From assembly GCA_050010755.1 (NCBI GenBank), contig JBEKKK010000001.1, positions 256,001 to 320,000 of the forward strand: a stretch of DNA of 64,000 nt, written 5' to 3'. The stretch comes from Candidatus Bathyarchaeia archaeon. GTDB lineage: Archaea; Thermoproteota; Bathyarchaeia; Bathyarchaeales; Bathycorpusculaceae. How positions within the stretch are numbered: position 1 is the first letter of the stretch; the number at the start of each line of letters is the position of its first letter. The notes beneath the pieces were generated by a model. The model saw nothing but the letters and a program-made list of their open reading frames with translations. It was not told the DNA's origin and searched no databases. Shown piece by piece: positions 18,008 through 37,697 of the stretch. A program made the position numbers and the translations under genes.

Positions 18008-19057
18008 GTGAAAAATTTGTCTTGGTACATGGAACTGGGAAAAGCCGCAGACACTTTGGTGAACTATGTCCTAAGAGTGAAAAAGAACGAGGACGTCCTG
18101 ATATATGGAGACGACATCGTTGACTTCGAAGTGATGAAGGCCACTGCCGCCGCCGTGAAAACGGCTGGAGCAACACCGACCATAGTTGTTCATGAAACGC
18201 GAGAGATATCATTCACTGAACCCCCGAAGCCGCTCGCCGCTGCAATGATGGATTCAGATGTCACAGTGGAATTCTCGGCAAGAGCAATTCTCTACACCAC
18301 AGGTCAAACAAACGCTTTGAAGAGAAACCGGGCTTACATCTGCCTAACTTCTCTTGACCGCGAGGCAATGGTCAGAACTTTGGGCTGGGTGAACTACCCG
18401 AAAATGGTTGAGCTGGGAGACAAACTTGCCGAAATGACGACGAAGGCCAAAGAGATCAAAGTAACGAGCCCTTCTGGGACAAACTTCTCAGCCCAGATAG
18501 GCGGACGAAAGTTTGAGAACTTCGGTGGCACAGCTGACAAAAGAAAAGTCATAATGTTAGGCGGCCAGACCGGTGGCGCTCCGATAGAGGAAACAGAAAA
18601 TGGTATCCTTGCTTTTGACGGAAACGTTTGGCCTCCAGATGAAATCAAGGCGAACATAAAAACTCCCATAAAATGCAAGGTTGAAAAAGGAGTCATAACA
18701 GAAATCTCTGGAGGTATCGAGGCTGACGTACTACGAAGGTACATGGCAAGCCTCAACGACAAGAACCTGTATCGCATAGCCCACGTCTGCTACGGATACC
18801 ATCCAAAGGCGAGAGTCACAGGCGACATATCTGAAGTCGAAAGAGTCTGGGGCTGCTTCCAAGTCGGATGGGGGTCTCAAGGACCACTCCTCAGACCAGA
18901 CCTAAAGGGCCAATTTGGATGGAGAGCTGCATCACATGACGACGGCATTATACTGAAAGCGTCAATATACCTCGACGGCGAAGCCATCCAAAAAGATGGG
19001 AAATTCGTCCATCCAGACTTGATCCCGCTAGTAAAGGCAATGGGCGTAGTGCAATAG
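18008..19057 (+). CDS. M29-fold metalloenzyme, NicX-like variant (paralog 1)
   Basis: AmpT-like fold (VTSPSGT, FDG..WPP, ISGG.EA) with GGQ, AHVCYG, EVERVWG and SHDDGI site motifs. Confidence 0.8.
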   Translation: MKNLSWYMELGKAADTLVNYVLRVKKNEDVLIYGDDIVDFEVMKATAAAVKTAGATPTIVVHETREISFTEPPKPLAAAMMDSDVTVEFSARAILYTTGQTNALKRNRAYICLTSLDREAMVRTLGWVNYPKMVELGDKLAEMTTKAKEIKVTSPSGTNFSAQIGGRKFENFGGTADKRKVIMLGGQTGGAPIEETENGILAFDGNVWPPDEIKANIKTPIKCKVEKGVITEISGGIEADVLRRYMASLNDKNLYRIAHVCYGYHPKARVTGDISEVERVWGCFQVGWGSQGPLLRPDLKGQFGWRAASHDDGIILKASIYLDGEAIQKDGKFVHPDLIPLVKAMGVVQ

Positions 19058-19264
19058 ATCACTGGAAAACTCTACCGCCCACCACTTTCCTTTTTTCTGG
19101 AAACCTCGTCAAAGGGTTCTCAGGCTTCTTAGCCTTTAAAATTATCTTCTTCAGATGAACTTGGCAGGTCGCGGCAGTTCACTCACGATAAGAAGAATCT
19201 TCGTCCTTTGGAGATTCTTATTTTACAATAAACACGAAAAAAAGACATGAAAAAAGAGGTCTTT

Positions 19265-20305
19265 CTATGCGAGCAGTTTTCCGTCTTTCATTACGGTTTT
19301 TCCGTCGAGCATCCACGTCGGTTTTGGAACGACGAAGTCTTGATGCAGGTCGGTCGACACTTTCCCGCCCATGTGTGAGTTGTCGCCTATAGCCAAGTGC
19401 ACTGTTCCTCTTATCTTCTCGCATTCGAGAAGGTTATCTGGCCGCTTTGCGTTTGGGTTTGTCCCTATCCCAAGTTCGGCTAGGTTTCTTCGCGAAAGAT
19501 ACGGTTCCTCTTTTTTGCTGAAGTCAAGCAATTTCCGGAATTCGTCGCCAACCTTTCCTCCGCCAATTATTCCAGTGACTTTTCCATCCTTAAAGACCAA
19601 GGTCATTTTCTCTTTGAGGTCTGCGCACCAGTTTGGCTCCACCACGAGGTTGCCGCCAGCCGTGCCTTCTACTGGTGTGGTGTATGCTTCTCCTGCCGGC
19701 AGGTTGCCCCAAGAGCCTTTCTCGTTGAATATTCCCGTGTCGACCTTACCGTTTCTGTCTTTCACGCTGAAAACGATGTTTGTGCCTCCTGGCGAGGTTA
19801 CCTTAGCTTCGCTGGCTTTTGTAATCCAATCTGCAATTCTTTTAGTTTCTTTTTCTATGAGTTGATAGTCAGCAGCCATGGGTCCGCCCTTGGAAAACAT
19901 TTCTGCCACGAAGGTTGGCATGCTCGCGACTCTTCCTCCAGCTTTGCACGCGTTGACGCGTGCATCGGTGTGAGTGAGCGAATAGGTTGTTATTGCAATA
20001 GTCACGTCTGCGTTCTTCATTTTCTCTTCGACTTCCTTTCCCGGATGAGTTCCATGTTGACCAACCGAAGGATAAGTGTAGAACTCGACAGGGTTTTTGG
20101 GGAATTTTTCTGCCGCGATTTCGCTGACCATCTTTGCCAAGATAGACCGTTCGGCTGCTTCTGCCAATTTTTCGCTAGTCTTGGTTTTCCATTCTGCGGC
20201 TGTTGGAACATCGTTGACAACCAGCACTTTCTCGCCATCTTTCAGTGCCATGTTCACTTTCAACATGTTCACGACGCCGTTCACAATTTTGTCCTTCTCG
20301 ATCAT
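19265..20305 (-). CDS. Aminopeptidase M29 (AmpT/AmpS-like, canonical dimetal site)
   Basis: NLPAGE, NLAELGIGTN, ECEKIRGTVHLAIG, LHQD; start moved to ATG 20305. Confidence 0.9.
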   Translation of the reverse strand: MIEKDKIVNGVVNMLKVNMALKDGEKVLVVNDVPTAAEWKTKTSEKLAEAAERSILAKMVSEIAAEKFPKNPVEFYTYPSVGQHGTHPGKEVEEKMKNADVTIAITTYSLTHTDARVNACKAGGRVASMPTFVAEMFSKGGPMAADYQLIEKETKRIADWITKASEAKVTSPGGTNIVFSVKDRNGKVDTGIFNEKGSWGNLPAGEAYTTPVEGTAGGNLVVEPNWCADLKEKMTLVFKDGKVTGIIGGGKVGDEFRKLLDFSKKEEPYLSRRNLAELGIGTNPNAKRPDNLLECEKIRGTVHLAIGDNSHMGGKVSTDLHQDFVVPKPTWMLDGKTVMKDGKLLA

Positions 20306-20363
20306 AAACATCACAACAGTGTCGATTTTTCGAGCAAATCGTAAACTAGCTGTGCTCAAAAGA

Positions 20364-20371
20364 CTTATAAG
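20364..20371. promoter_or_regulatory. Palindromic TATA element (CTTATAAG) in a divergent promoter
   Basis: 8-bp perfect palindrome between the divergent M29 and nitroreductase genes. Confidence 0.45.
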
Positions 20372-20414
20372 ATTTCTGTTTTGTGATTCTAGCAGAAACT
20401 TGGAAGGATCGATT

Positions 20415-20912
20415 ATGGAAGACCGAATAATTGAAGTTATCAAGAAGCGGAGAAGTGTGCGCCGATACAAGAAAGAATCCTTTCCGATGGAAAAACTTGT
20501 CCATATTATCGAGGCGGCCCGTTGGGCACCTTCAGCCGGCAATTCGCAACCTTGGATGTTTTTGCTGATAAACGACGAAAACATGGTGAAGGCACTGAAG
20601 TCAGTGTCCCCAGGATGGTTGAGAGATGCTCCTGCAGCGATAGTAATGTGTCTCAACAGAGAAAGTGAAACGAATTGGAGTTACATGGATATCGGTGCCG
20701 CGATGCAGAACATGCTGTTGTATGCCCATTCGATGGGGTACGGATGCTGCCCGATTGGCAGTTTCGTCGTTGACGCCATTAAGGGACTCTTAGAATTGCC
20801 AACAAAGCTCGAACCGGTTTTGTTGCTGACGGTGGGCTACCCTGATGAGAAGCCGCCAGCCACAACTCGTTTGTCAACGGGCGAACTTATTTTCAAGAAG
20901 GTTGGAAACTAA
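20415..20912 (+). CDS. Nitroreductase-family flavoprotein, cyclodipeptide oxidase subunit A (AlbA)-like, copy 1
   Basis: RRSVRRY, APSAGNSQPW, VSPGW, DIGAAMQN, GCCPIGSF, LEPVLLLTVGYP; translationally coupled (TAATG) to an AlbB-like gene. Confidence 0.8.
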   Translation: MEDRIIEVIKKRRSVRRYKKESFPMEKLVHIIEAARWAPSAGNSQPWMFLLINDENMVKALKSVSPGWLRDAPAAIVMCLNRESETNWSYMDIGAAMQNMLLYAHSMGYGCCPIGSFVVDAIKGLLELPTKLEPVLLLTVGYPDEKPPATTRLSTGELIFKKVGN

Positions 20913-21211
20913 TGACGAAAAAGGCGGATGACTACCTTTTTGAGATAACCTGCTTCGTGACATCAAGTGCCGAGAGAGCTCTCGGACCCGAACGACAATA
21001 CGGAGCGTGCCGCCTCCTCCAAACGCTCTACATGCTCTCTTTCCTTCCAGACTACGTCGACGTGAAGGGAAACGAGTTGCTGGCGAAAGTCAGAGCATAT
21101 GTGGACGCAGATCCTCAGAACTTCTGGCGTGAACCTCAACTGAAACAGTTTTTCAGTGAGCTCAGTCGACAACTCGCGACAGAGATAAAGAGTCGACAAA
21201 ACTTGAAGTGA
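20912..21211 (+). CDS. Small helical protein, AlbB/DUF6092-like, copy 1
   Basis: 99 aa; YLFEITCFVTSSAE...P..YGACRLL motif shared with 38358..38684. Confidence 0.72.
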   Translation: MTKKADDYLFEITCFVTSSAERALGPERQYGACRLLQTLYMLSFLPDYVDVKGNELLAKVRAYVDADPQNFWREPQLKQFFSELSRQLATEIKSRQNLK

Positions 21212-21266
21212 TAGTACAAGTCAAGTTTTAAATACATCATTCTCTCAGAGACGCGTGGGGATAGTT

Positions 21267-21980
21267 TTGCTCAAAATACTATTCATAAACCCGATGGGCA
21301 CCGACATTTACGATAGACACATGTTGGACACGATAAACGCAGTCAAGAGAAGTGACGTGAAAGCTAAGGTAGTCCATCTGCACAAAGGTCCAGTCCACTT
21401 GGAGTATCACTACTATGAACACTTGAATCTTGACGAAACTCTAAATTGGGTGAGGCGAGCGGAAAAAGATGGTTATGACGCAGTGGTCATAGGCTGTTTC
21501 TACGACCCCGGAGTAAGGGAAGCCAGGGAACTAGTTTCCATTCCAGTTATCGTTCCTGCAGAAGCAACATTACACGTCGCCGCGACGCTCGGACACAAGT
21601 TCTCGATAATCGTGGGTAGACGAAAGTGGATTCCGAAGATGGAAAGCAACCTGTACGTTTACGGACTAGAGAGGAAGCTTGCCTCATTCCGAGCTTTAGA
21701 CTTCACCGTCCCTAAGATGTTTTCTGACCCTGAGAAGCTTGAAAAGGCTATTTTGACCGAGGCCAAGAAGGCACTGAAAGAGGACGGCGCAGAAGTCATA
21801 GTCCTTGGATGCACGATGGAGTCAGGATTTGCGAAAGATTTGACAGAAAAGCTGAAAGTGCCTGTTCTGGACGCTGTTGTGACCTCGTGGAAATATGCTG
21901 AAATGATGGCTGACTTATACCGCAAAGTGGGCTTAACGCACTCCAAACTTTACGGATACGAAGCTCCTCCCGATGCGTAG
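21267..21980 (+). CDS. Asp/Glu/hydantoin racemase family protein (copy 1)
   Basis: ILFINP, IGCFYDPG and VLGCT catalytic cysteine pair; TTG start chosen. Confidence 0.9.
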   Translation: MLKILFINPMGTDIYDRHMLDTINAVKRSDVKAKVVHLHKGPVHLEYHYYEHLNLDETLNWVRRAEKDGYDAVVIGCFYDPGVREARELVSIPVIVPAEATLHVAATLGHKFSIIVGRRKWIPKMESNLYVYGLERKLASFRALDFTVPKMFSDPEKLEKAILTEAKKALKEDGAEVIVLGCTMESGFAKDLTEKLKVPVLDAVVTSWKYAEMMADLYRKVGLTHSKLYGYEAPPDA

Positions 21981-22144: not shown

Positions 22145-22855
22145 TTAAGGCGTTCTCTTTTTCTTATAAGGATCCATGAACGCTTTTTTGCTGTTCGAGA
22201 GGTTTAATTTCACCAAGTCCTCAGCAATCTTCAGCGCAGCTAAGCCGGGATCGACAACGGGCACTTTGAGTTTTTTCTGCATTATTTCTGCTATGTTGAG
22301 TAGACTTCCGCATCCCATGACTAAGACTTCAGCTCCGTCTTCTTCTATGGCTTTTTTGCCTGCGGCAAGCAGTTCCTTGCAGAGTTCATCAAAGTCTTTC
22401 TTGATGTCAAGAACTTTCGTTTCGATTATCCTGGCTGATGCCAGCTTGTGCTTCAATCCGTAAACCGTTATCTTGTCCTCGAACAGTGATGCAGCACCGC
22501 AACCGCCAACACCTATGACTGAGAATTTCCTCCCCAAAATGGACGCTAGATGAATTGCTGGTTCGTTTATCCCAACTACGGGTATGTTTAACGCTTCTTT
22601 CATTGCTTCAAGCGCCGGATCGCCGAAACAATAGTCTATGACAGCGTCGTAACCTTCCTTCTCAGCTTTTTCGGCTTCAAGTAACGCTGGCAGAGCGGCC
22701 CAAGCTTCGTCGTAGAGTTGCTCGATGGAGTCAGGACCTCTCTTCAAGTTTACCACGGTCAGCTTAGTGTCAGGATCTTTGTATTTTTCGAACGCTTCTC
22801 TTATCATGTCAGTCCAAAGATCTGTCGTGACTGGTACGATGACTTTTATTCGCAT
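22145..22855 (-). CDS. Asp/Glu/hydantoin racemase family protein (copy 2)
   Basis: GPDSIE, YCFGDPA and VMGCG catalytic cysteine pair, PVVDP. Confidence 0.9.
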   Translation of the reverse strand: MRIKVIVPVTTDLWTDMIREAFEKYKDPDTKLTVVNLKRGPDSIEQLYDEAWAALPALLEAEKAEKEGYDAVIDYCFGDPALEAMKEALNIPVVGINEPAIHLASILGRKFSVIGVGGCGAASLFEDKITVYGLKHKLASARIIETKVLDIKKDFDELCKELLAAGKKAIEEDGAEVLVMGCGSLLNIAEIMQKKLKVPVVDPGLAALKIAEDLVKLNLSNSKKAFMDPYKKKRTP

Positions 22856-23047
22856 GTTGAAACCCTGAATTAGTGTAGATATATGAGGCGATTTAAGTCT
22901 TTCTAGCAGAGACCAAACAAGGGACAATTAACGAGCTAAAACCGATGCTAATTGATGCGTTTGATTCGGGCAATGAGCTCCAACAAGGTTACGAGAGGAA
23001 AATTCTTTTAAACTATGCAACATTATGGTATTCACAGGCGGTATCCC

Positions 23048-24094
23048 TTGACGGAGTATTACGAATATGAGTTAGGCAAGGCTGCCAAGATTCTGATTAA
23101 TGAACTTGTAAAAGTCAAGCCAGGAGAAATAATTGCAATCACAGCTGACACAGGATCGGACAGAAGAGTGGTGAACGCAACGGCTGCTGCCGCCTTCGCC
23201 GCTGGCGGACTGCCCTTAGTTATGACGATTGCATCGCCGTTAGGAGTTGGCAAGGATTCTGACGCATTGACCCCTGTAAAAGCACTAGGAGCGGCTCTGA
23301 AAGAAGCTGACGTTTGGATAGAATACAACCAGCAATGGCTGCAGTACTCAACAACATATGAGATTGCTACCAAGGGAAATAGCAGACTGAGATACCTGTG
23401 CTATGTTACAATGGATGCAGATATGATGACGAGAGTGATAGGCCGAATTGATTACGTTGCACAGAAGGCCTTTCAGATAAAGTTACACGACATGACAGAA
23501 AAGTCTAGGCATATGCGAATTACAACCCCAGCTGGCACACACGTAGAGTTTGACAACCCGCGAAAGGTGTGCATGACAAATTCGTACGGTTATGCGGACG
23601 TCCCTGGTCAGCATTTGTTGGCAGGGCAGATAGGCTGGAGGCCGGTTGTTGAATCTATCAACGGGACAATAGTCTTTGACGGATCTATAGTTCCCCCCAT
23701 CGGCTTGGTTAAAACCCCTGTGAAGCTTTCCGTTAAGGGGGGAAAGGTCGTGAAGTTCGAGGGCGGCGATGAAGCCTTGAAGTATGAGTCTTGGTTGAAA
23801 AGCTTCAAAGATCCGCTTATGTTGACCTTGGCTCACGCATGCTATGGAGTAAACCCGGGGGCGAACCTAACCGGAAACATTCTTGAGGACGAAAGAGTTT
23901 GGGCCTGTACAGAATGGGGATTAGGATACGTAGGTCCATTTTTTGCCCCACCGGACGGCATACCAGCGTCAACCCACACGGACGGAATATGCCTCAACTC
24001 TTCAGTGTGGCTCGATGAAGAACAAATTCTCGACAAAGGAAAATTCATACATCCTGAGTTAGCGAAGTTAGCCAAAAGACTCGGAAAGACGTAG
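23048..24094 (+). CDS. M29-fold metalloenzyme, NicX-like variant (paralog 2)
   Basis: YYEYELGKAA, AGQIGW, FDGS..PP, AHACYG.NPGA, LEDERVW, THTDGI; TTG start. Confidence 0.82.
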   Translation: MTEYYEYELGKAAKILINELVKVKPGEIIAITADTGSDRRVVNATAAAAFAAGGLPLVMTIASPLGVGKDSDALTPVKALGAALKEADVWIEYNQQWLQYSTTYEIATKGNSRLRYLCYVTMDADMMTRVIGRIDYVAQKAFQIKLHDMTEKSRHMRITTPAGTHVEFDNPRKVCMTNSYGYADVPGQHLLAGQIGWRPVVESINGTIVFDGSIVPPIGLVKTPVKLSVKGGKVVKFEGGDEALKYESWLKSFKDPLMLTLAHACYGVNPGANLTGNILEDERVWACTEWGLGYVGPFFAPPDGIPASTHTDGICLNSSVWLDEEQILDKGKFIHPELAKLAKRLGKT

Positions 24095-24141
24095 CCATTA
24101 TTTGCAAACAGCTAGTTTCCTGCCAGACTGGAACAGTAGTG

Positions 24142-25113
24142 CTATTTAGCCGCTAGGTGACAGGCTACCTGATGGTCTGGTTCCACGGTGACGAACGATG
24201 GTTGTTTGGTCTTGCATATTCCGGTTGCGAAGGGGCATCTGGTGTGGAAGCGGCAACCCGGTGGCGGGTTTATGGCGCTCGGAACTTCGCCTCTTGATGT
24301 TACCTCTTTGGGTTTAAGCTTCTCCTCGTCGTCCGTCAACACGGGTATTGATGAGAGTAGCATCTGCGTGTATGGATGCACAGGATTTCGGAAGAAAATC
24401 GGTGTGGGAGCAAACTCCACGATTTGTGCCAGATACATTATCGCCACCCTTGAAGACACGTTTCTCATGAGGCTCAGATCATGGGTTATGAACAAGTATG
24501 ACAAGTTGAGTTCTTGTTGCAGCTTCATGAGCACTTTCATTATTTTTGCCTGGATAGAAACGTCTAGAGCTGATGTGGGCTCATCTAGTACTATGAAAGA
24601 GGGGTTTGTTGCGATGGCCCTTGCGATAGCGACAGCCTGTCTTTCACCTCCACCCAAGTCTTTTGGTCGTCTCTCTTTGAAATCCTGAGAGGGCAACTCG
24701 ACGGCATCAAGCAGTTCAGATACTCTTTTGTCTCGTTCTTCACGAGTTTTAGCCAGCCCCTGAATTCTCAACGGTTGCCCTATTACGTCTTTGACCGTTT
24801 TTGTCGGATTCAGAGAAGAAGCAGGATCTTGGAAGACGATTGCAAGATTCTTCTTCAAACCTTTTGGACGTTTCTTGGCGTGCATGGACAAGTCGTTGCC
24901 TTTGAAGAGTATTCTTCCCGAGGTGGGCGTGTAGATGCCCATAACTACATAGCCGGTTGTGCTCTTGCCAGAACCTGATTCGCCTACTAAGCCGAAGGTT
25001 TCACCTGATTTGACTGTAAAGTTTATGTCGTCTATTGCTCTGACTACTCCGAAACTGGTTTTGAAATGTTTTGTAAGATTTTCCACTACTAGTAAATCCT
25101 CATTCTTTTCCAT
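24142..25113 (-). CDS. Peptide ABC transporter ATP-binding subunit (OppF/DppF-like)
   Basis: GESGSGKST, LGGGERQ signature, VLDEPTSALD, HPYT..L, PPGCRFHTRC...C...VAC. Confidence 0.95.
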   Translation of the reverse strand: MEKNEDLLVVENLTKHFKTSFGVVRAIDDINFTVKSGETFGLVGESGSGKSTTGYVVMGIYTPTSGRILFKGNDLSMHAKKRPKGLKKNLAIVFQDPASSLNPTKTVKDVIGQPLRIQGLAKTREERDKRVSELLDAVELPSQDFKERRPKDLGGGERQAVAIARAIATNPSFIVLDEPTSALDVSIQAKIMKVLMKLQQELNLSYLFITHDLSLMRNVSSRVAIMYLAQIVEFAPTPIFFRNPVHPYTQMLLSSIPVLTDDEEKLKPKEVTSRGEVPSAINPPPGCRFHTRCPFATGICKTKQPSFVTVEPDHQVACHLAAK

Positions 25114-25119
25114 TAGTGC

Positions 25120-26103
25120 TCATCTCTTGTTATACAACCAACAAGCAACTTTGTGGTTTTCCCCATTCACTTCCAGAAGACTGGGCCTTTCCTTTCTGCA
25201 TATCTCCATTGCATGCTGACAACGTGGATTGAACCTGCAACCGGGTGGAGGGTTAATGTAGTCTGGAATTCTTCCTGGAATACCTTCAGAAAATCCTTCC
25301 CCACTCAACTTGGGAACAGACTTAAGCAGTCCTTGCGTATAAGGATGCAGAGGGTTCGAGAACAATTTCTGTGTTTCTGAAGACTCAATCATGTTTCCCG
25401 CGTACATGACATACACTGTGTCTACTGTGTTTTTTACGGTTCCCAGTGCATGAGATATCAGGATGATTGACAGGTTTCTCTTGTCTACTAGGTCCTTCAT
25501 AAGACGCAAAACTTGGTCTTGAATTGTGACGTCAAGACTGGTGGTGGGCTCGTCAGCAATCAGAAGATCCTTCGCTGTGGCCAGCGACATTGCTATGCAA
25601 ACTCTTTGACGCATGCCACCGCTTAACTGAAAGGGGTAGCTGTCAAGCACTCTTTCAGGATCTGGAAGCGAAACTTCCTTGAGAGCTGCTATGGATTTTC
25701 CCCGAAGGATTTTTTTCGTGGCTTTTTCGTGGTCAAAGTCGCCTGAGTATTTTATTACATCTCCAAGCAGTTCTTCGATCTTGAATACCGGATTGAGGGC
25801 GGCAGTTGGATCCTGAAATATCATGGTAAGGTTTTTTCTTCTTATCTGGTTCAATTGCTTCTTGCGGATTTTCAGCATGTCCTGTCCTCGAAAACTTACT
25901 TCTCCACCCTCGATTACGGCGTTTGACGCTAGGATCCCAAGTATTGCCTTCATCGTACTGGTCTTACCGCAACCAGATTCGCCGATGATTCCGACTTTCT
26001 CGCTCTCACGCAGAGTGAAGTCTACCCCGTTTAAGACATTCAGCTTGCCCAAGTACGTTTTGAAGCCTACAAAAAGGTTTCTCACTTCCAAGAAAGGCTC
26101 CAT
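25120..26103 (-). CDS. Peptide ABC transporter ATP-binding subunit (OppD/DppD-like)
   Basis: GESGCGKT, LSGGMRQR, IADEPTT.LD, HPYTQGL, PPGCRF.PRC. Confidence 0.95.
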   Translation of the reverse strand: MEPFLEVRNLFVGFKTYLGKLNVLNGVDFTLRESEKVGIIGESGCGKTSTMKAILGILASNAVIEGGEVSFRGQDMLKIRKKQLNQIRRKNLTMIFQDPTAALNPVFKIEELLGDVIKYSGDFDHEKATKKILRGKSIAALKEVSLPDPERVLDSYPFQLSGGMRQRVCIAMSLATAKDLLIADEPTTSLDVTIQDQVLRLMKDLVDKRNLSIILISHALGTVKNTVDTVYVMYAGNMIESSETQKLFSNPLHPYTQGLLKSVPKLSGEGFSEGIPGRIPDYINPPPGCRFNPRCQHAMEICRKERPSLLEVNGENHKVACWLYNKR

Positions 26104-28013: not shown

Positions 28014-28172
28014 TGCGCATCGACACCTTTAATATCTATAAATGCTAGAGCGACTCTAAAAAGTCTTTTCGTATCAGACGAAACTTTGGCTCAAGTGAAT
28101 TGTCGAGGAGAACCTTCCATTATTGCATAGGTTGCAAAATGGTTGCTTGTTACTACGTGTCAAACATTCCTT

Positions 28173-28225
28173 TTCATCTCGACACGGCGCACAGTGCACT
28201 ATGAGATGAACATAAACCTTTAATA
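28173..28225 (+). promoter_or_regulatory. Inverted repeat plus BRE/TATA-like element upstream of the substrate-binding protein gene
   Basis: TTCATCTC (28173-28180) and GAGATGAA (28203-28210) enclose the palindrome AGTGCACT; followed by aaacctttaata. Confidence 0.35.
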
Positions 28226-28274
28226 GTACATAGGAAAAACAGTACAAAAGAAAATAAAATCTGGAGGAAGAACT

Positions 28275-30005: not shown

Positions 30006-30017
30006 CAAAAACGAAAC

Positions 30018-30191: not shown

Positions 30192-31457
30192 GTGCTTTAC
30201 GTTCTGCTTGGTTCACTAGTCGCAAGAATCCTCCTGTTTCCTGTACAGGGGTGTTCAGGCGACTTAGCAGCATTCGCATTGTGGTTTAACGCCGCTGCAG
30301 CTCATGGACCAGTCGTCTTTTATCACGTTGTGAACTGTGATTATCCCCCGCTCAACGTCTACATTTTTTGGGTCTTCGGATCTCTTGCAAAACTGCTTTC
30401 GGTTTCTGTCTCGCAGCCCCTAGGAGCGCATGCGCTCTACTTGTTGAAGCTGCCTTCAACCCTTTTTGACACGGCGACAGCAGGTCTGATATTCGTTTTT
30501 CTCAGAAAAAGACTCAGTCTTAATCTCTCCCTCTTGGCAACTTCTTTCTACGCGTTTAATCCTGCAACAATTTTCAACGGGTCCATCTGGGGGCAGTTTG
30601 ACGCGATATACACTTTTTTTCTTGTGGCCTCACTGATACTAATTATCAACTCAAAACCAACGTTGTCAGTAGCAGCCTTCACAGTCGCAGTCCTGGCCAA
30701 GCCGCAAAGCATCGCCTTGGCACCCCTGATAGTCTTTATGCTAATAAAAGAGAAAAGCTGGCAGACTGTGGTGACTTCTGTTGCTACGTCAATAGCTCTG
30801 ATTTTCGTGGTCTCGGTTCCTGTGAGCCTTAACAACCTAGCGAATTTCCTAGTGAACATTTATCTCAAGGGATACACGAGTTACAGCGTTACTTCTGCCA
30901 ACGCTTTCAACCTCTGGGCAGTAGTTGGCCTTTGGAAACCAGACTCCCAAGCGTTTCTGTCGTTGAATTTTTTCGATATCGGCTGGATCATGTTCGGTGC
31001 GCTGACGGCTCTCTCACTGTTTTGCTTGTATAAGGCATCCCACCGCTCGGACAGGAATAGTCACACTTTTGAAGTCTCAGTGCTTTTCACTGCTTTTGTA
31101 CTCTTGTTCGGTTTCTTCATGCTTCCAACCAGGATTCATGAAAGATATTTATTCCCAGTCTTCAGCGTCTTAGCAATGATGCTCCCCCTCGCAAAAGAAG
31201 CGAAACCACTCTACGGGATTCTGACCTTCACCTATCTTGCCAATTTGGCATATGTTCTTCCCTTCCTCAACGCCGGCGAAAGCAACATACCCAACGGGAA
31301 TCCTTTCATCTATGCCGTAACCACGATTAATCTGGCCGCTTTTGCATACGCGCTGGCGGTAATCATCAGGAAGCCAAAATTGACGAGTTCGATCTCCAGC
31401 CAAGTATTCGAGAACTCCAGACAATCAGTTAAAGGAGACTGTGAACCTCGATGCTGA
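30192..31457 (+). CDS. Multi-TM GT-C fold glycosyltransferase (mannosyltransferase-like)
   Basis: CDYPP, LKLP, FNPA....S.WGQFD, KPQ, SANAFNLW, IHERY; true start may be slightly upstream. Confidence 0.8.
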   Translation: MLYVLLGSLVARILLFPVQGCSGDLAAFALWFNAAAAHGPVVFYHVVNCDYPPLNVYIFWVFGSLAKLLSVSVSQPLGAHALYLLKLPSTLFDTATAGLIFVFLRKRLSLNLSLLATSFYAFNPATIFNGSIWGQFDAIYTFFLVASLILIINSKPTLSVAAFTVAVLAKPQSIALAPLIVFMLIKEKSWQTVVTSVATSIALIFVVSVPVSLNNLANFLVNIYLKGYTSYSVTSANAFNLWAVVGLWKPDSQAFLSLNFFDIGWIMFGALTALSLFCLYKASHRSDRNSHTFEVSVLFTAFVLLFGFFMLPTRIHERYLFPVFSVLAMMLPLAKEAKPLYGILTFTYLANLAYVLPFLNAGESNIPNGNPFIYAVTTINLAAFAYALAVIIRKPKLTSSISSQVFENSRQSVKGDCEPRC

Positions 31458-33145
31458 TTACCAAGCGCGACACAGTCACGATTGTCATACTGACTCTTGT
31501 CTTTCTTGCGATAGGGACGTGGGCATTAGGCATGTACAGTGTCCCCACCACCACTTGGCAATCTTACGGCATAGAAACCTTCTATGTTGATTTGGGAAGC
31601 GTGAGGAATGTAAGTTCTGCATACGTCTTAGTAGCGCAGGGAAGCGTGAGCTTTTCGGTCTACACTGGCCAGCCTGGAAACTGGACACTCGTTACGCAGA
31701 CTTCGATGGAAAACTACTACTATCAGTGGGGTCAAGTTCGCATAGATGAGGAAACCCGTTTCATACGGTTCGCTTTCGCGCCTTCGGACGGCGAGGTTGC
31801 AGAATTATCAGCCCTTGATGGAAATAACAACCAAAAAATCGTTATCAAAGCAATACAGGGTGAGAACACTGACGACAAAGGATTGGCAAATCTCACAGAT
31901 GAGCAGAACAAGGTCGAATGCCCCCCGACGTACATGTCTGAAACCTACTTCGACGAGATATATTACGTTCCAACCGCTAAGGACTACCTAAACCTCAAAG
32001 AACCTGCTGTTATAGCTGACATCAAAACGCTACAGTACGAGTGGACCCAACCGCCTCTCGGAAAGTTGATAATCGCCGCCAGCATATCCCTCTTCGGCGA
32101 CAACCCCTTTGGCTGGCGAATGTTGGGAGTCCTTTTCGCTGCCTTAATGATACCAATAATTTATTTGCTCGGAAAGAAAATGTTCGGAACATGGATCGGC
32201 GCTTTCTTACCAGCTTTTCTTCTCACGTTTGATTTCATGCACTTCACGATGGCAAGAATCGCCACCGTTGACACTTACCTTGTTTTCTTTTCATTGTTGT
32301 CGCAACTTTTCTTCTTCATTTACCTAAAGAACGTTCTTAGCCAAGGTTGGAAAACGCCGATTTGGCCCCTCCTCCTGTCAACAATCTTCTTTGCACTCGC
32401 ACTCTCAACGAAATGGTACGCATTACCAGGCTTTGTGGGTGATATTACTATACTCCTCTTTCTTGGCCTTCACGGACTGCCTAAATCTAAAGGATTTGTC
32501 CAAGGAGTTGGAACCTTTCTCAAACCCCTTCTCTTCCTAGTAATCTTCCTGCTCATGGCAGTTGGAATATACGTACTGACTTACGTTCCCAACATGCTGG
32601 CTGGGAGCACATTACTGGACATTTATCATTTACAGTGGTCTATGCTTCATTATCACGAGTTTCTCACGGCCCCGCATCCATTTTCTTCTCCATGGTGGAG
32701 TTGGCCATTGATGACGAGACCTGTCTGGCTCTACGTCTCAAACCTGCCGAACGGCATCGTTTCAACGATAGCAGATATGGGAAACCCCGCAATCTGGTGG
32801 ATAGGTTTCGCTTCCGTCATCATAGCCGCTTGGGAAGGTTTTCGAACAAAAAGCTATCTTTGCCTTTTCATCGTGACCATATTCCTCTTTCAGTGGGTAC
32901 CATACGTCTTAATTTCAAGAGTCCTTTTCCTCTACGCCTTCTACTCTAACGTTCCAATCATGATTTTAGCGACCACCTATTTCATCAACAAGTCTTGGAA
33001 AACGCGTCAAGGAAAAATTCTCGTGCTAACATACCTGATTGTCGTAGCGCTTTTGTTTGCGGTCTTCTACCCTGTCATTTCAGGAGTGCCAGCGCCAGAT
33101 TATTGGAGAGAAGGGCTTAAGTGGCTGAGAAGCTGGGTGTTCTAA
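31451..33145 (+). CDS. Dolichyl-phosphate-mannose:protein O-mannosyltransferase family (PMT/GT39)
   Basis: YFDEIYY acidic motif, PPLGK, FGWR, RIATVD, STKW, HPFSSPWWSWP...RPVW, MGNPAIWW. Confidence 0.88.
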   Translation: MLITKRDTVTIVILTLVFLAIGTWALGMYSVPTTTWQSYGIETFYVDLGSVRNVSSAYVLVAQGSVSFSVYTGQPGNWTLVTQTSMENYYYQWGQVRIDEETRFIRFAFAPSDGEVAELSALDGNNNQKIVIKAIQGENTDDKGLANLTDEQNKVECPPTYMSETYFDEIYYVPTAKDYLNLKEPAVIADIKTLQYEWTQPPLGKLIIAASISLFGDNPFGWRMLGVLFAALMIPIIYLLGKKMFGTWIGAFLPAFLLTFDFMHFTMARIATVDTYLVFFSLLSQLFFFIYLKNVLSQGWKTPIWPLLLSTIFFALALSTKWYALPGFVGDITILLFLGLHGLPKSKGFVQGVGTFLKPLLFLVIFLLMAVGIYVLTYVPNMLAGSTLLDIYHLQWSMLHYHEFLTAPHPFSSPWWSWPLMTRPVWLYVSNLPNGIVSTIADMGNPAIWWIGFASVIIAAWEGFRTKSYLCLFIVTIFLFQWVPYVLISRVLFLYAFYSNVPIMILATTYFINKSWKTRQGKILVLTYLIVVALLFAVFYPVISGVPAPDYWREGLKWLRSWVF

Positions 33146-33147
33146 GG

Positions 33148-33897
33148 ATGAAAACAAAGCTTGAAGACAAGAAGAAGGTTGAGGTCTCATTAGTTTTCCC
33201 AGCTTGCAACGAAAGAGAAAACCTGGAGAATGCAGTCAGAAAAACAACCCAAGCTCTAGGAAAGATTACTAATTCTTATGAAATAATAATTGCCGAGGAT
33301 GGAAGCACCGACGGGACGGACAGAATTGCAGCCACACTTTCAACTGAGTATCCGTCCGTGCAGCACATACACAGAGACAAGCGCCAAGGAAGAGGGCTCG
33401 CGTTGAAAAACGCTTTTGCAGAGTCCAAAGGAAGAATTCTGGTTTACATGGACGTGGACCTCGCTACAGACATTGGACACTTGAGAGCGCTTATAGAAGC
33501 GGTGCAAGGCGATTGTGACTTTGCAACGGGTTCAAGGATGCTGCCAGAGAGCAGAGTCAGCAGAAGCATATCGAGACAAGTTGCCTCAAAGAGTTACAAC
33601 TTCATGGTAAGATCATTCCTGGGCTCAAAGATATCAGATCACCAGTGCGGTTTCAAGGCGGCAAGAAGAGAGGCGCTTTTGGAAACCCTCGACGAAGTGA
33701 AGGCAACACACTGGTTCTGGGATACTGAGCTGCTCGTCAGAGCCTCACGTAAAGGATACAAAATAAAAGAGATCCCCGTAGAATGGACTCACAGGGGCCA
33801 GACGAAAGTGAGATTTATAAAAGACACTATCGAGATGGGCAGTCAAGTTGTCAACCTTTGGCGGCAACTAAGGATCGGCCAAGCTAGAAAAACTTGA
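33148..33897 (+). CDS. GT2 dolichol-phosphate mannosyltransferase-like protein (AglD/DPM-type)
   Basis: EDGSTDGT, GRG.A, YMDVDL (DxD), GSR, DHQCGFKA, WFWDTE, EIPVEW. Confidence 0.9.
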   Translation: MKTKLEDKKKVEVSLVFPACNERENLENAVRKTTQALGKITNSYEIIIAEDGSTDGTDRIAATLSTEYPSVQHIHRDKRQGRGLALKNAFAESKGRILVYMDVDLATDIGHLRALIEAVQGDCDFATGSRMLPESRVSRSISRQVASKSYNFMVRSFLGSKISDHQCGFKAARREALLETLDEVKATHWFWDTELLVRASRKGYKIKEIPVEWTHRGQTKVRFIKDTIEMGSQVVNLWRQLRIGQARKT

Positions 33898-34018: not shown

Positions 34019-35221
34019 CTATTGCCGCGAACAAGTTTCTTTTACCAGTAGACCGCAGATGGCTTCGACGACTGTGAAGGCGGTGCACATAACGATGGCT
34101 GGCATAAAGGATCCTGTTGCTGTGGAGAAATAGCCGGCCAACCAGGGAGCAATCATAGCTCCTACGTATCCTCCAACGAGTGTCAAACCGCCCGCCGTTG
34201 CCGAGTATGACGGTCCCATAAGTTCAACAGGCATCGCAAGTATTATGGGAGCCATGCTTCCGATGAGAAAACCGTAGAAAAGGGCAGATGTCCATAAAGG
34301 TACCCCGAGAGTTGTTCCCGTAAAGTAGAGAGCTACTGCCGCAGCGATGGACGTAGCCCAAATGAAGGGCTTCCTCTTGCCGACGCGATCAGATATCATA
34401 GGTGTGATGAAGCTGCCTGGAATCATGAACAGTATTATCGTAGATGTCAAGAGACCAGCAGTAGTCGAATCCATTCCCTTCTGGGTCAATATAGTTTGAA
34501 GAAATCCGAACAAACCAATTTGAGGTGCGAGAAGAAACAGACAGGTAATCATAACCATCCACATCTGCTTTTTTCTGAGCACAACAGAAAGAGATTTTCT
34601 GAACGGTACCCCCCGCGTTTCAGCAGGGGAACGGCTTTCACCGTTCTTGAGATTTGCGGGTCTTTCCTTTGCCAACAATATCCAAATCAAGGTCATTGCT
34701 AAGGCAAGAATGCCAACAGTTATGAAAACCCCTCGTGGAGACCCCGTTAGAGGAAGCAGGACTATCGGAGTCAAAATGAAGGAAGAGGCCATGCCGACTT
34801 CCATTCCTGTAAACATTATGCCGCTTGCCAACGCGTATTGTTTAGAAGGAAACCACACGCCCGTCACTTTGGGCATGTTCGGGTAGGCAATGGCGTAGCC
34901 TGCTCCGCACAGAAACATCGTTGTCGCTAGTAGGGTGAAATTCGGCGCGAATCCTCTGAGAAGCCCGAAAATGCCCATGAGCAGACCACCAATCAAAACA
35001 GTCTGCTTGACGCCGAATCGGTCTGCAAGCAAGCCTCCGGGAATGCAGAGGATCACAAGTGCTAGTGGAACTAGCGCCACTAGGAACCCAAATTGGGCGT
35101 AGGTCACCCCCAACTTTGTCTCCATTGGCGTTACGGAGAACCATGATAAGCCCATCGAGAACATCATTAACCATGTTACGGCAACCATAACCCAACGGTA
35201 GGGCGAAGCTTCTTCACTCAA
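34019..35221 (-). CDS. MFS transporter
   Basis: About 12 TM segments; GLLADRFGVK and SDRVGKRK MFS loop motifs. Confidence 0.92.
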   Translation of the reverse strand: MSEEASPYRWVMVAVTWLMMFSMGLSWFSVTPMETKLGVTYAQFGFLVALVPLALVILCIPGGLLADRFGVKQTVLIGGLLMGIFGLLRGFAPNFTLLATTMFLCGAGYAIAYPNMPKVTGVWFPSKQYALASGIMFTGMEVGMASSFILTPIVLLPLTGSPRGVFITVGILALAMTLIWILLAKERPANLKNGESRSPAETRGVPFRKSLSVVLRKKQMWMVMITCLFLLAPQIGLFGFLQTILTQKGMDSTTAGLLTSTIILFMIPGSFITPMISDRVGKRKPFIWATSIAAAVALYFTGTTLGVPLWTSALFYGFLIGSMAPIILAMPVELMGPSYSATAGGLTLVGGYVGAMIAPWLAGYFSTATGSFMPAIVMCTAFTVVEAICGLLVKETCSRQ

Positions 35222-35483
35222 CCTGCAGCCTTCCTGCATGCATCATCATGGTCGTCGCATAATAGTTTTTGCTTTGAAACATTATTTCAACTCATGCCGA
35301 ACGTTAGAGCGGGTACTGCACTGAGCCGTTTTCTTGAAACAAGTTACAACTTGGCAAACTCGAAATTGTCGATAAAGGTTGACTTGGAAGCCGAGATTTG
35401 ATGACCAATCGCAGGCAGCCGATTCCCAATCTTTTATACCTAGGAACCCCAAATGTGGTTTAGAATCCTTGGAGTTCTCGCAC

Positions 35484-36431
35484 ATGGTCAAGTTTGGGAT
35501 ACATTTGCCCCAGATTGGTGTTGATTATCGCACGGTTAAGGACGTGGCCTTGACGTGTGAACGCGTCGGGTTTCACACTGTTTGGGCGACGGATCATCTC
35601 CTGCCGATTGAAGGCTCCGGGCAAGAATCCTATCTGGAGTGTTGGACAACCCTCTCCGCGTTGGCAGAAGCAACAAGTACTGTGAGAATAGGGACTATGG
35701 TGCTTTGCAACCTGTACAGGCACCCACCTATTCTGGCCAAGATGGCGGCAACCCTCGATGTCGTCAGCGGGGGCAGGCTTGATTTCGGTCTCGGAGCGGG
35801 ATGGTTCAAACCAGAAGCCGAAGCTTTCGGCGTGCCGTTTCCAAAAGCTCCTGTCAGGATAGAAATGCTCAATGAAGCCCTGGAAGTGCTTGAGAAGATG
35901 TGGTCAGAAGAAAAACCTGTTTTCAACGGCAAGTATTACAGGATAAACGAGTCATCATGCAACCCGAAGCCCCTCCAGAAACCACATCCCCCAGTGTGGA
36001 TAGGCACTCAGACGGGAGGCAAACTGATGTATAAAACGGTTGCCAAGCATGCCGACGGATGGGCGGTCGGAGCTTGGTATTTGCCGTCAGTCGATGAATA
36101 CAAGCAGATGACGGACCAAGTTAAGCTCTTCTGCTCAGAGGCTGGAAGAGATTTCGAAAGACTGGAGAAAGGGCTAGGAGTTGTGTGTGTTCTGGCTGAG
36201 AACAAGACAATTCTTGAAGAAAAAACCAGGAGGTACAGACCCTCGAGAAGCCCACTTGACGAGTACGGGGCAACGAAAATGCAGATATATGGAACCCCAG
36301 AAGCGTGCGTGGACATTCTGAAAACATACGCCAAAGCAGGCGTGGATCATTTCATGATGGTATTTCCAGACGGAACGGATCTCAAAACGATTCGCCTCTT
36401 CGGCGAGCAGGTTATACCATTCGTTAAGTGA
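35484..36431 (+). CDS. LLM-class (luciferase-like) oxidoreductase, probably F420-dependent
   Basis: WATDHL, LE.WTTLSALA, YRHP..LAKMAATLDVVSGGR...GLGAGW, PKPLQKPHPP. Confidence 0.9.
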   Translation: MVKFGIHLPQIGVDYRTVKDVALTCERVGFHTVWATDHLLPIEGSGQESYLECWTTLSALAEATSTVRIGTMVLCNLYRHPPILAKMAATLDVVSGGRLDFGLGAGWFKPEAEAFGVPFPKAPVRIEMLNEALEVLEKMWSEEKPVFNGKYYRINESSCNPKPLQKPHPPVWIGTQTGGKLMYKTVAKHADGWAVGAWYLPSVDEYKQMTDQVKLFCSEAGRDFERLEKGLGVVCVLAENKTILEEKTRRYRPSRSPLDEYGATKMQIYGTPEACVDILKTYAKAGVDHFMMVFPDGTDLKTIRLFGEQVIPFVK

Positions 36432-36650
36432 ACCCAGAACTTATTCGCGCGCGACCTTGCACGACACAAACTTGGAAAGGCAAATCGGAATTTCGCGAAA
36501 AGTTAAGAAACCTGTTTCGAGATATGATTGTTCTAGATTGATGCGCTTTGAGCACTCGAAGCGGCAAGAATGAGTGGCACAAGTCGAGAAAAAGAAAAAA
36601 GATGGGAAGGCTCTGTAGCTTCGGAGCTTCCGTTTCGAGCCTTGATTGTT

Positions 36651-37697
36651 CTAAGATTTGCCGAGTTTCTTTGCAAGCTTTGCAAGTTCAGGAATGGTTG
36701 CCTGACCCTTGTCCCACACTTGTTTTCCGTCCAGCCACACGGATGTGTTCATGCAGATTCCATCGCTGTGGGAGGGTGCCGGTATCGGCTTGCCGCCTGT
36801 CAGTATCTGACCAACATACCCAATTCCCCATTCGCTAGCGCCCCAAACTCTCTCGTCCTCCAGGACGTTTCCAGTCAGTTTGGCGCCTGGGTTGCATCCG
36901 TAGCAAACATGTGCCATGCTTCGCATTAGAGGGTGGTTGAAACTCTTGAGCCAAGCATCGAAAACCTCGGCATCTTGGCCGCCTTCAATTTTCTGTATTT
37001 TTCCTGCCTTGACGTGAAGTTTGACAGGTGACTTGCATAAGCCCAGCGGCGGGTTTATTGAACCATCGAAAACAATCGTGCCGTGGATCGACTCGAAAAC
37101 TGGGGACCAGCCTATCTGTCCTCCAAGCATATGGGAGCCGGGTGTGTCTGCATAGCCGGTTTCTATAGTTATTGGTCGTTTGCGTTCGTTGTCGAATTCA
37201 ATATCTGTTCCTGCGGGCGTGGTCATCTTTACGTGCTTAGCTGCTTTAGTCATTTCCGCCAGTTTTTCTTCGTAGGCGGCCAGTGTCTTTACGTCGACTC
37301 TGGCGATAGTTCTGACCATCATGTCCACGTTCATTCCGACATAGCATGCATGCCTGAGTTTTTTGTTTGCTTCCATAGCATTTGCGTACGGTGTCGAATA
37401 GAAAATCCACTCATTGTTGAACTCGCACCAAGCATCTGCACACTTCAGGAGTGCCTCTATCGCCTCTGCCGGCAAATCGGCATCTGCCGCTTTACCTACT
37501 CCACGGGGTGAGGCGTTCCATATCACAAGAGGTTTCGCTCCAATCGTAAAGGCAGCTGCTGCCGTGGCTTCGACCACGCGAGGATCGGATTCGGTGTCTC
37601 CAGAAACGACGAAGGTTTCTCCGGGCTTCAGCTTGAACCATTCTGAAACAAGTCTGTGCGCTGCTTTAGCTAGCTCGTACTCGTAGTATTGAGGCAT
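36651..37697 (-). CDS. M29-fold metalloenzyme, NicX-like variant (paralog 3)
   Basis: YYEYELAKAA, GGQIGW, FDGS.NPP, AHVCYG.NPGA, LEDERVWG, SHSDGI; visibly close to 23048..24094. Confidence 0.82.
   Translation of the reverse strand: MPQYYEYELAKAAHRLVSEWFKLKPGETFVVSGDTESDPRVVEATAAAAFTIGAKPLVIWNASPRGVGKAADADLPAEAIEALLKCADAWCEFNNEWIFYSTPYANAMEANKKLRHACYVGMNVDMMVRTIARVDVKTLAAYEEKLAEMTKAAKHVKMTTPAGTDIEFDNERKRPITIETGYADTPGSHMLGGQIGWSPVFESIHGTIVFDGSINPPLGLCKSPVKLHVKAGKIQKIEGGQDAEVFDAWLKSFNHPLMRSMAHVCYGCNPGAKLTGNVLEDERVWGASEWGIGYVGQILTGGKPIPAPSHSDGICMNTSVWLDGKQVWDKGQATIPELAKLAKKLGKS

Follow-up and report, generated by a model that had tools for sequence, protein, structure and literature searches.

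The closest described relatives of the proteins considered here are the Fe(II) dioxygenases NicX and Hpo (PDB 7CN3, family PF26233), the dimetal aminopeptidases of peptidase family M29, and the crocagin biosynthesis proteins CgnB and CgnE. According to the active-site account of NicX, the enzyme binds Fe(II) through His265, Ser302, His318, and Asp320, contacts its substrate, a planar six-membered lactam, through Leu104, His105, Glu177, and His189, and is inactive as the S302A variant (PMC7910607). Both Hpo and NicX are reported to lack activity on leucine p-nitroanilide (PMC3831237). The M29 dimetal motif is given as EEHYHD (PMC7023490), and CgnB is described as holding two Zn ions with Glu161, Glu252 (the bridging ligand), Glu274, His280, His291, and Asp293 (PMC10070186). 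Here we describe four paralogs of this fold, designated A to D, that are encoded in a 64,000-nucleotide stretch of DNA from a Candidatus Bathyarchaeia archaeon (the window; positions 256,001 to 320,000 of contig JBEKKK010000001.1, assembly GCA_050010755.1). Three of the four (A, C, and D) share an altered metal site, and we tentatively propose, while stopping short of calling it probable, that these three are O2-independent metal amidohydrolases that open cyclic dipeptides.

The neighboring genes recall another described system. In cyclodipeptide oxidases, the CDOA (AlbA) subunit has a nitroreductase fold and the CDOB (AlbB) subunit corresponds to PF19585 (DUF6092). As surveyed in the same account, a cyclodipeptide synthase (CDPS) is missing from 88% of 274 oxidase clusters, such clusters are enriched for PF01177 racemases, DUF917, dipeptide ATP-binding cassette (ABC) transporters, and unnamed peptidases, and the oxidases also occur in anaerobes, where they may use other acceptors (PMC11055893). 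Like these non-CDPS clusters, the window and many of its related loci combine a nitroreductase-fold CDOA and a PF19585 CDOB with PF01177 racemases, dipeptide ABC transporter genes, and "peptidases", and DUF917 is likewise found in related loci.

Sequence, fold, and metal site of the paralogs

Paralogs A (18008–19057, 349 residues) and C (23048–24094, 348 residues) are encoded on the forward strand, and B (19265–20305, 346 residues) and D (36651–37697, 348 residues) on the reverse strand. The start codon of A is GTG at 18008. That of C is most likely TTG at 23048, because its homologues are 348 residues long and an Atlas record begins at residue 12. The open reading frame (ORF) of D extends to 37706, but its start is most likely the ATG at 37697 because homologues open with MPQYYEYEL. 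C and D are 58% identical, A shares 36–37% identity with either of them, and A and B share 24%. A database protein, P0271, is 100% identical to B, and D is 93% identical to the central gene of a related locus (L029) with the same gene order.

Using the residue numbers of C throughout, we call proteins with His at position 263 His-type (A, C, and D) and those with Glu there Glu-type (B). The initial annotation reported that B carries the dimetal ligand motifs PAGE, LAELG, ECEK..VH, and HQD, and that A, C, and D all change GE to GQ, AELG to AHxCYG, and the His after ExE to Gln or Glu while keeping HxD. A four-way alignment confirms both statements. B has NLPAGE, NLAELG, LLECEKIRGTVH, and LHQD (E194/E263/H289) and thus the full dimetal ligand set. 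The corresponding motifs are LGGQ, IAHVCYG, SEVERVWGCFQ, and SHDDG in A (Q194/H263/Q289, or QHQ); LAGQ, LAHACYG, LEDERVWACTE, and THTDG in C; and LGGQ, MAHVCYG, LEDERVWGASE, and SHSDG in D (both QHE). Relative to the M29 dimetal set, A, C, and D therefore replace Glu by Gln, the bridging Glu by His, and His by Glu or Gln. The AHxCYG motif is present in all three, but its Cys is not a constant of the family, as it occurs in only 65 of 93 His-type proteins and in 18 of 110 aligned representatives (both sets are defined below). A role for this Cys as a nucleophile or ligand was set aside because of these counts.

NicX (7cn3) is the best PDB sequence match for A (E = 2.5e-11), B (1.7e-7), and C (1.5e-13), and a 36-row family profile matches it at 8.1e-39. 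AlphaFold (AF2) models of C (pLDDT 94.7, pTM 0.91) and B (pLDDT 92.3) also place NicX first in Foldseek comparisons with the PDB (E = 1.6e-27 and TM 0.77 for C; TM 0.75 for B). The M29 peptidases PepS, AmpT, and AmpS rank after NicX (TM 0.59–0.68 for C and 0.57–0.65 for B), and CgnB and CgnE rank behind these (TM ~0.5). The M29-type fold first assigned to A, C, and D is thereby borne out, with NicX the nearest relative by sequence and, for C, also by fold.

Paralog B had been taken for a canonical M29 peptidase, an assignment that we revise. PF02073, the Pfam M29 model, scores B at 22.2 bits, under its cut-off of 27 (A, C, and D do not match it), M29 peptidases are absent from the PDB sequence matches of B at E ≤ 10, and the model of B lies nearer NicX (0.75) than PepS, AmpT, or AmpS. 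For these reasons we do not regard B as a canonical M29 peptidase; judged from sequence and predicted structure, its architecture is that of NicX, combined with a retained dimetal ligand set, and it is canonical only in those ligands.

Scans of A, C, and D against NCBIfam and a Pfam library that apparently did not include the PF26233 model matched no family, and B likewise drew no PF26233 match from this library. The PF26233 ("NicX") label comes from precomputed annotations only, where it is attached to all 120 listed homologues of C, all 120 of B, P0271, and 98–100% of the members of the nearest Atlas clusters; public homologues of the B type usually carry PF02073 as well. Of 8000 candidates scored against C, 1570 are homologues at E ≤ 1e-3. 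Source names of the homologues include "aminopeptidase", "leucyl aminopeptidase (aminopeptidase T)", and "2,5-dihydroxypyridine 5,6-dioxygenase", so the misannotation that had been anticipated for this group does occur.

The M29 aminopeptidases AmpT (2AYI), AmpS (1ZJC), and PepS (4ICQ) share with the window proteins the clan-level fold, the C-terminal His-x-Asp, and the Glu that precedes the His position, and B retains Glu, Glu, His, His, and Asp of their dimetal set. However, the M29 peptidases are 397–413 residues long and the window paralogs are ~60 residues shorter. The six ligand positions of B occur in the same order as those of CgnB, judged by sequence order only. CgnB and CgnE (6ZSV, 6ZSU) share the fold (TM 0.50–0.52) and likewise combine an intact-site paralog with an adjacent altered-site one. 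They differ in being peptide-binding proteins of a pathway for ribosomally made, post-translationally modified peptides (RiPPs), in which CgnE carries no metal, whereas the His-type copy keeps a conserved triad and often stands alone. In addition, the precursor peptide and biosynthetic context of the crocagin pathway has no counterpart around the window paralogs.

NicX and Hpo have in common with the His-type proteins a two-domain architecture, a length of ~350 residues, the His/His/Asp triad, and an Arg. In a profile alignment, NicX His265, His318, and Asp320 fall on H263, H310, and D312 of C, and Arg293 falls on R283. However, the fourth NicX ligand, Ser302, falls on G291, which is an invariant Gly in the 36-row alignment, and Met290, Ala292, and Leu300 fall on E280, E282, and E289, carboxylates that are missing from NicX. 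NicX also has an 8-residue insert relative to C. The position of NicX His105 is Tyr (Y100) in 91 of 93 His-type proteins, and Phe194 aligns with the Gln of the GQ motif (Q194). The Glu177 position is variable (Ser in C, Glu in D, and Phe in A), and the His189 position is His in C and D, Ile in A, and His in 69 of the 93.

These 93 His-type proteins comprise the members from 78 related loci plus A, C, and D. All of them keep H263, E280, E282, and R283, and H310 and D312 are each kept in 92; Y100 (91), Q194 (90), and E289 (89) are nearly as constant, and C265 is found in 65. The 28 Glu-type proteins uniformly have H100, D179, N189, E194, E263, G265, E280, E282, K283, H289, H310, and D312. With NicX Ala292 replaced by E282 and Ser302 by an invariant Gly, the His-type site is a triad plus carboxylates, a combination that occurs in many metallohydrolases. 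From these alignments we infer that the metal-2 half of the M29 site survives in His-type proteins as a 2-His-1-Asp triad and that the bridging carboxylate is lost. The resulting site, in which Glu282 and usually Glu289 would serve as carboxylates of the catalytic or second sphere, would be hydrolase-like and not that of NicX. The initial description of a NicX-like His...HxD site therefore holds for the triad (H263/H310/D312) but not for the rest of the site, where Ser302 becomes Gly and the Glu280 and Glu282 that are Met and Ala in NicX are kept.

One protein that does resemble NicX at these positions is encoded on a Variovorax plasmid (L080:16812-19005), where a gene named "leucyl aminopeptidase" adjoins NicD- and NicF-like genes for an alpha/beta hydrolase and an isochorismatase-family protein. 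The cluster looks like nicX-nicD-nicF, with the NicX-type gene under a peptidase name. Its product has F194, SHIGWG, and Ser291 and is devoid of E280 and E282, a NicX signature that is not present in A, C, and D (Gly at 291). A tblastn search of plasmids with C returned 10 records, none of them close.

Descent and gene neighborhood of the His-type clade

A profile search of 1.84 billion representatives returned 3327 clusters (50% identity) at E ≤ 1e-3 and 300 at E ≤ 1e-30. We counted residue states in an alignment of 110 rows, made of 106 full-length 50%-identity representatives and the four window proteins, in which 71 rows have His at position 263 and 34 have Glu. This state changes only 2 times on trees of 105 and 108 rows, a number as low as this was reached in none of 500 label shuffles, and a quick IQ-TREE run gave the same number of changes as FastTree. 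A 55-row all-His clade with 99% local support (FastTree) holds both a 21-row clade that includes A, with P0121 as its nearest member (64% identity), and a 28-row clade that includes C and D. The changes common to A, C, and D are thus inherited and not due to chance, since they are near-invariant in 93 proteins and the tree requires only 2 changes. Moreover, because all three lie within the all-His clade, they are best viewed as old paralogs of one clade and not as products of parallel change. Recent duplication was rejected as the source of their common motifs, as A shares only 36–37% identity with C and D and belongs to another clade. The NicX-context Variovorax protein falls outside the 55-row clade, on a long branch that makes its placement unsure.

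The 78 related loci were returned by a scan of one genome per species with a 13-row alignment as the query. They come from Bathyarchaeia, which supply the closest loci, and from Atribacterota, Aerophobetes, Coprothermobacterota, Thermotogae, Bacillota, Bipolaricaulota, Thermoplasmatota, Heimdallarchaeota, Hadarchaeota, Caldarchaeales-like Nitrososphaeria, Synergistota, and others. We take all of these source lineages to be anaerobic and largely peptide-fermenting. Neighbors were counted by tblastn with the window proteins, both in all 78 loci and in a well-flanked subset of 40 that have at least 5 kb on both sides. At least one of Dpp genes, a PF01177 racemase, an AlbA-like nitroreductase, and DUF6092 is found in 38 of the 40. 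Clustering of 1194 ORFs from the 78 loci added M20 peptidase (10 loci), DUF917/S-Me-THD (10), hydantoinase A (7), and hydantoinase B (4).

Dpp genes are present in 51 of the 78 loci and in 33 of the 40. In the window, a Dpp/Opp-type ABC importer identified with Pfam occupies 24142–30005, with two ATPases and two permeases on the reverse strand and a family-5 binding protein (28275–30005) on the forward strand. In the binding protein, a Ser/Pro/Ala-rich linker (PSPSPSASPTASPSASPSPSSS) comes after an N-terminal membrane segment, and genes for PMT-type and GT2 glycosyltransferases (30192–33897) lie directly downstream. Such glycosyltransferases may glycosylate linkers of this kind.

PF01177 racemases (30/78 and 17/40) are represented in the window by Rac1 (21255–21980, forward strand, 138 bits) and Rac2 (22145–22927, reverse strand, 153 bits), both far above the cut-off of 31 bits, with Rac2 divergent from C. 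The best PDB matches are 3qvj, 5lfd, and OpaE (9qbx) for Rac1, and 3qvj (8.5e-31) and 5lfd (7.7e-30) for Rac2. Both proteins are therefore nearest to hydantoin/allantoin racemases (3qvj, 3qvk, and 5lfd) and then to OpaE, which is described as a racemase-family member that epimerizes nonribosomal peptide derivatives, whereas Asp/Glu racemases are far weaker matches.

Two pairs of AlbA- and AlbB-like genes, all on the forward strand, have the gene layout of a cyclodipeptide oxidase, in which CDOA is followed by an adjacent or overlapping CDOB-like gene. The first AlbA-like flavoprotein (20415–20912, PF00881; AlbA 8uc3_A, 1.3e-21) has its ATG at the third codon of the translated stretch, and the start of its 99-residue AlbB-like partner (20912–21211) lies within its stop codon, so that the genes overlap at 20912. 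This partner scores below threshold with PF19585 (24.5 bits, cut-off 28.7) but covers model positions 3–85 of 86; it has no PDB sequence match and is 29% identical to its counterpart in the second pair (pairwise E = 3e-10). That pair is divergent from D and consists of an AlbA-like flavoprotein (37803–38354, PF00881; AlbA 8uc3_A, 2e-26) and a DUF6092 protein (38358–38684, PF19585, 80.6 bits), whose best PDB matches are AlbB 9exv_C (4.2e-5) and 8uc3_D (0.008). AlbA-like nitroreductases are found in 26 of 78 loci (16 of 40) and DUF6092 proteins in 19 of 78 (12 of 40). The tight divergent arrangement of DUF6092 and nitroreductase genes facing a His-type gene occurs in the window and in many Bathyarchaeia loci, among them L003, L004, L014, L021, L029, L045, L060, and L070.

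A B-type paralog is present in 33 of 78 loci (19 of 40). Archaea and bacteria together contribute 23 co-directional pairs of a His-type and a Glu-type gene with gaps of 12–87 nucleotides, with the His-type gene first in archaea and Atribacterota and the Glu-type gene first in Desulfurococcales and Bacillota. A predicted complex of D with B scored 0.00, which is uninformative for or against a heteromer. Downstream of D, genes for an F420-dependent luciferase-like oxidoreductase (35379–36431, forward strand) and an MFS transporter (34019–35239, reverse strand) occupy the site where most Bathyarchaeia loci have the Glu-type paralog, a replacement common to L029 and L070.

Downstream of the second flavoprotein pair, the forward strand carries a hydroxyproline block (38785–44949, assigned with Pfam) with genes for a proline-racemase-family protein, the large and small subunits of AcnX, a glycyl-radical activase, and the glycyl radical enzyme HypD (trans-4-hydroxy-L-proline dehydratase). 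HypD scores 1332 bits with NF043068 (NCBIfam cut-off 1100), and the activase scores 397 bits with NF043069, below its cut-off of 425. The initial judgment that O2 chemistry is unlikely here is supported by this confirmed HypD neighbor and by the presumably anaerobic sources of the 78 loci. The AcnX subunits are cis-3-hydroxy-L-proline dehydratase-like. The hydroxyproline/proline block extends to 49491, adding an ornithine-cyclodeaminase-family reductase, a DAO-family flavoprotein, and a 2-oxoacid:ferredoxin oxidoreductase, and L029 keeps most of the gene order from 38785 to 49491 at 77–93% identity. HypD itself is found in 9 of 78 loci (6 of 40). The tightest His-type/HypD linkage was seen in three Thermoplasmatota loci (L062, L076, and L077), where two His-type genes flank HypD and its activase, a PF01177 racemase lies beside them, and no Dpp genes were detected.

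Upstream of A, an M24 Xaa-Pro dipeptidase-like gene (15400–16578, reverse strand) matches PF00557 and Creatinase_N and reaches 239 bits with the archaeal PepQ model (cut-off 630). Found in just 1 of the 78 loci, it is not a conserved partner. A CGGC-domain protein gene (17466–17915) lies 92 nucleotides upstream of A on the same strand and is preceded by a forward-strand gene for a 206-residue membrane protein without an assigned family (16602–17222). Neither of these genes recurs in any of the 78 loci.

Proposed function and alternatives

The His-type clade is an uncharacterized, anaerobe-wide branch of the NicX/M29-like fold (PF26233). A, C, and D are good candidates for cyclic-dipeptide opening because they lie beside peptide importers, ring racemases, and cyclic-dipeptide oxidase look-alikes. 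From the observed fold, ligand pattern, clade structure, and gene neighborhood, we would predict the metal number, the hydrolytic chemistry, the substrate, and the order of steps as follows. The two-metal co-catalytic site of M29 would be reduced to one metal on His263, His310, and Asp312, and Glu282, together with Glu280, Arg283, and usually Glu289, would act as a general base or acid for a metal-bound water. Loss of the second metal site would fit a substrate without a free N-terminus. The substrates would be peptide-derived cyclic amides, most likely 2,5-diketopiperazines (cyclic dipeptides), and the enzyme would be cytoplasmic. Cyclic dipeptides might be taken up by the adjacent Dpp-type ABC system, epimerized at C-alpha by the hydantoin-type PF01177 racemases, in some cases dehydrogenated by the AlbA/AlbB-like flavoprotein pair, and then opened by the His-type enzyme to yield a linear dipeptide or dehydro-dipeptide. 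The linear product could then be cleaved by the Glu-type dimetal paralog (B) or another peptidase, and in this genome part of the freed proline and hydroxyproline might pass to the products of the adjacent HypD, AcnX, and proline-racemase-family genes.

A hydrolase for cyclic amides was among the initial suggestions. The gene context agrees with this idea (two AlbA/AlbB-like pairs, racemases, HyuA/HyuB, and DUF917), whereas the chemistry is still conjecture. We are more doubtful about a broader version of the cyclic-dipeptide proposal, in which the missing amidohydrolases that open diketopiperazines in anaerobic peptide fermenters are His-type proteins, acting within a widespread catabolic module of Dpp-type importer, ring racemases, oxygen-independent AlbA/AlbB-like dehydrogenase, and dimetal paralog, with the aerobic dioxygenase NicX as a later offshoot of a scaffold that binds cyclic amides.

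Several points dampen our confidence in cyclic-dipeptide opening. Dpp transport is the strongest association (33/40) and would fit an ordinary dipeptidase equally well, while the nitroreductase (16/40), DUF6092 (12/40), and racemase (17/40) are each found in under half of the well-flanked loci, two of which (L009 and L039) have none of these four neighbors. The counts are raw, without a background frequency, and the loci were picked by similarity to C and D and include near-duplicates (L017/L020). The racemase, HyuAB, M20, and DUF917 neighbors are equally compatible with a hydantoin and a diketopiperazine route. Ligand geometry is read from alignments only, and a second metal site with a changed ligand set is possible, given that 89 of the 93 His-type proteins retain Glu289. 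Furthermore, the cyclodipeptide oxidases characterized so far are described as using O2 (PMC11055893).

The most serious alternative, although we consider it somewhat unlikely, is that A, C, and D act on linear peptides as ordinary exo- or dipeptidases whose metal site is unusual, with Xaa-Pro, Xaa-Hyp, Pro-Hyp, or D-residue dipeptides as candidate substrates. Working alongside the Dpp importer, they would feed amino-acid fermentation. Dpp genes are the commonest neighbors, the founders of the superfamily are aminopeptidases (PepS, AmpT, and AmpS are among the fold matches), HypD and the M24 prolidase-like gene are nearby in the window, and the racemases could serve D-residue peptides. However, two of the M29-type ligands carry fixed changes (Q194 in 90/93 and H263 in 93/93), and 23 loci keep an intact-ligand Glu-type paralog directly beside the His-type gene, which suggests that the two types have different jobs. 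The racemases are of the cyclic-ureide type and not the amino-acid type, the AlbA/AlbB-like pairs have no obvious role on linear peptides, and just 1 of the 78 loci has the M24 gene.

It is rather less likely that the proteins belong to a hydantoin-type or other cyclic-ureide or lactam pathway, as a new hydantoinase, N-carbamoyl-amino-acid amidohydrolase, or oxoproline-type lactamase. Hydantoin/allantoin-type racemases adjoin the genes, and HyuA, HyuB, DUF917, and M20 occur in 7, 4, 10, and 10 of 78 loci, but the transporter is of the dipeptide/oligopeptide ABC type, whereas classical hydantoin clusters carry a nucleobase-cation permease. Also against such a pathway, we regard 5-substituted hydantoins as uncommon in nature, where they are rare substrates. 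The discussion of non-CDPS oxidase clusters interprets them as modifying hydantoin or allantoin, but the sole characterized relatives of the flavoprotein pair that it describes act on cyclic dipeptides (PMC11055893).

A slightly weaker possibility, and an improbable one, is O2-independent, non-hydrolytic chemistry on the product of the AlbA/AlbB-like pair, such as hydration, tautomerization, or cleavage of an enamide or hydroxypyrazinone ring. The tight divergent arrangement of DUF6092, nitroreductase, and His-type genes in the window and in many Bathyarchaeia loci would fit such a role, and so would the planar six-membered lactam reported as the NicX substrate (PMC7910607), in which case the pocket and not the chemistry would be common to the two. 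Yet at least 52 of 78 loci have no nitroreductase neighbor by tblastn, although many of these loci are short, and we found no precedent within the fold.

Very unlikely, in our view, is that His-type proteins are not catalysts themselves and work with the Glu-type paralog in binding or scaffolding, as CgnE works with CgnB. The 23 adjacent co-directional pairs and the paired intact and altered paralogs described for this fold (PMC10070186) are consistent with this idea. However, the altered residues are strictly conserved (H263 in 93/93; H310 and D312 in 92/93), unlike the varied "deleterious" changes of the CgnE type, and 45 of 78 loci, some of them short, have no Glu-type neighbor by tblastn.

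Finally, it is scarcely credible that A, C, and D are true Fe(II) dioxygenases of the NicX type, using O2 to cleave hydroxypyridines: although NicX is the best PDB match, the His/His/Asp triad is kept, and some sources name homologues "2,5-dihydroxypyridine 5,6-dioxygenase", Ser302 is an invariant Gly, His105 is Tyr (91/93), Phe194 is Gln, the Glu177 position varies, the NicX-signature Variovorax protein lies outside the 55-row clade (with its placement unsure), nicD/nicF-like families are not apparent among the 45 most widespread ORF clusters (Pfam was run on 18), the hosts are presumably anaerobes, and the genes adjoin HypD. Pfam and NCBIfam likewise revealed no nic-type neighbors (N-formylmaleamate deformylase or maleamate amidohydrolase) in the window, so the nicC/D/F-type surroundings of NicX contrast with the peptide and cyclic-amide genes that surround His-type genes.

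Remaining genes of the window and implications for the family

The region from 7290 to 13846 encodes HdrA-like and HdrC/B-like proteins, an acyl-CoA dehydrogenase, and EtfAB. These may form an electron-bifurcating set, which in an anaerobe could be a sink or source for the flavoprotein pairs. A 404-residue ORF (50090–51304, reverse strand) has an HEYEH (HExxH-type) motif and no Pfam or NCBIfam match, and its sequence suggests that it may be an unclassified metallopeptidase. Two reverse-strand ORFs (52762–53850 and 53163–53723) lie antisense within the thermosome gene (52699–54366) and are almost certainly not genes. The presence of a thermosome gene, like the Bathyarchaeia origin of the closest related loci, gives the window an archaeal look.

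The fold, the Pfam family, and the general make-up of non-synthase oxidase clusters were already known. What appears to be new is a strictly conserved site variant, read from the alignments as Gln/His/Glu-x-Glu-Arg/Glu/His-x-Asp with no Ser ligand, that marks an anaerobe-wide clade. The operonic pairing of the His-type gene with a dimetal paralog also appears to be new, as does the place of the His-type family as the anchor "peptidase" of these modules. In this last respect our reading differs from the published account, whose section on oxidase clusters does not name NicX/M29-like proteins as the recurrent peptidase and proposes no catabolic ring-opening step (PMC11055893). Seven of its supplementary files contain no mention of M29, aminopeptidase, NicX, PF02073, PF01177, or dihydroxypyridine. 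The open-access literature that we searched yielded nothing relevant on named diketopiperazine hydrolases and nothing of use on DUF917/S-Me-THD.

Cyclic dipeptides arise spontaneously from peptides and withstand ordinary peptidases. A conserved, easily cloned candidate family with defined partner genes makes the question of which enzymes open them directly testable. If the proposal is correct, it would assign a role to the 88% of cyclodipeptide-oxidase clusters reported to lack a synthase (PMC11055893), and it would correct the labels "leucyl aminopeptidase" and "2,5-dihydroxypyridine dioxygenase" across a family of 3327 clusters. It would also show how a co-catalytic peptidase site has been remodeled in the direction of the mononuclear site at which NicX carries out its O2 chemistry.

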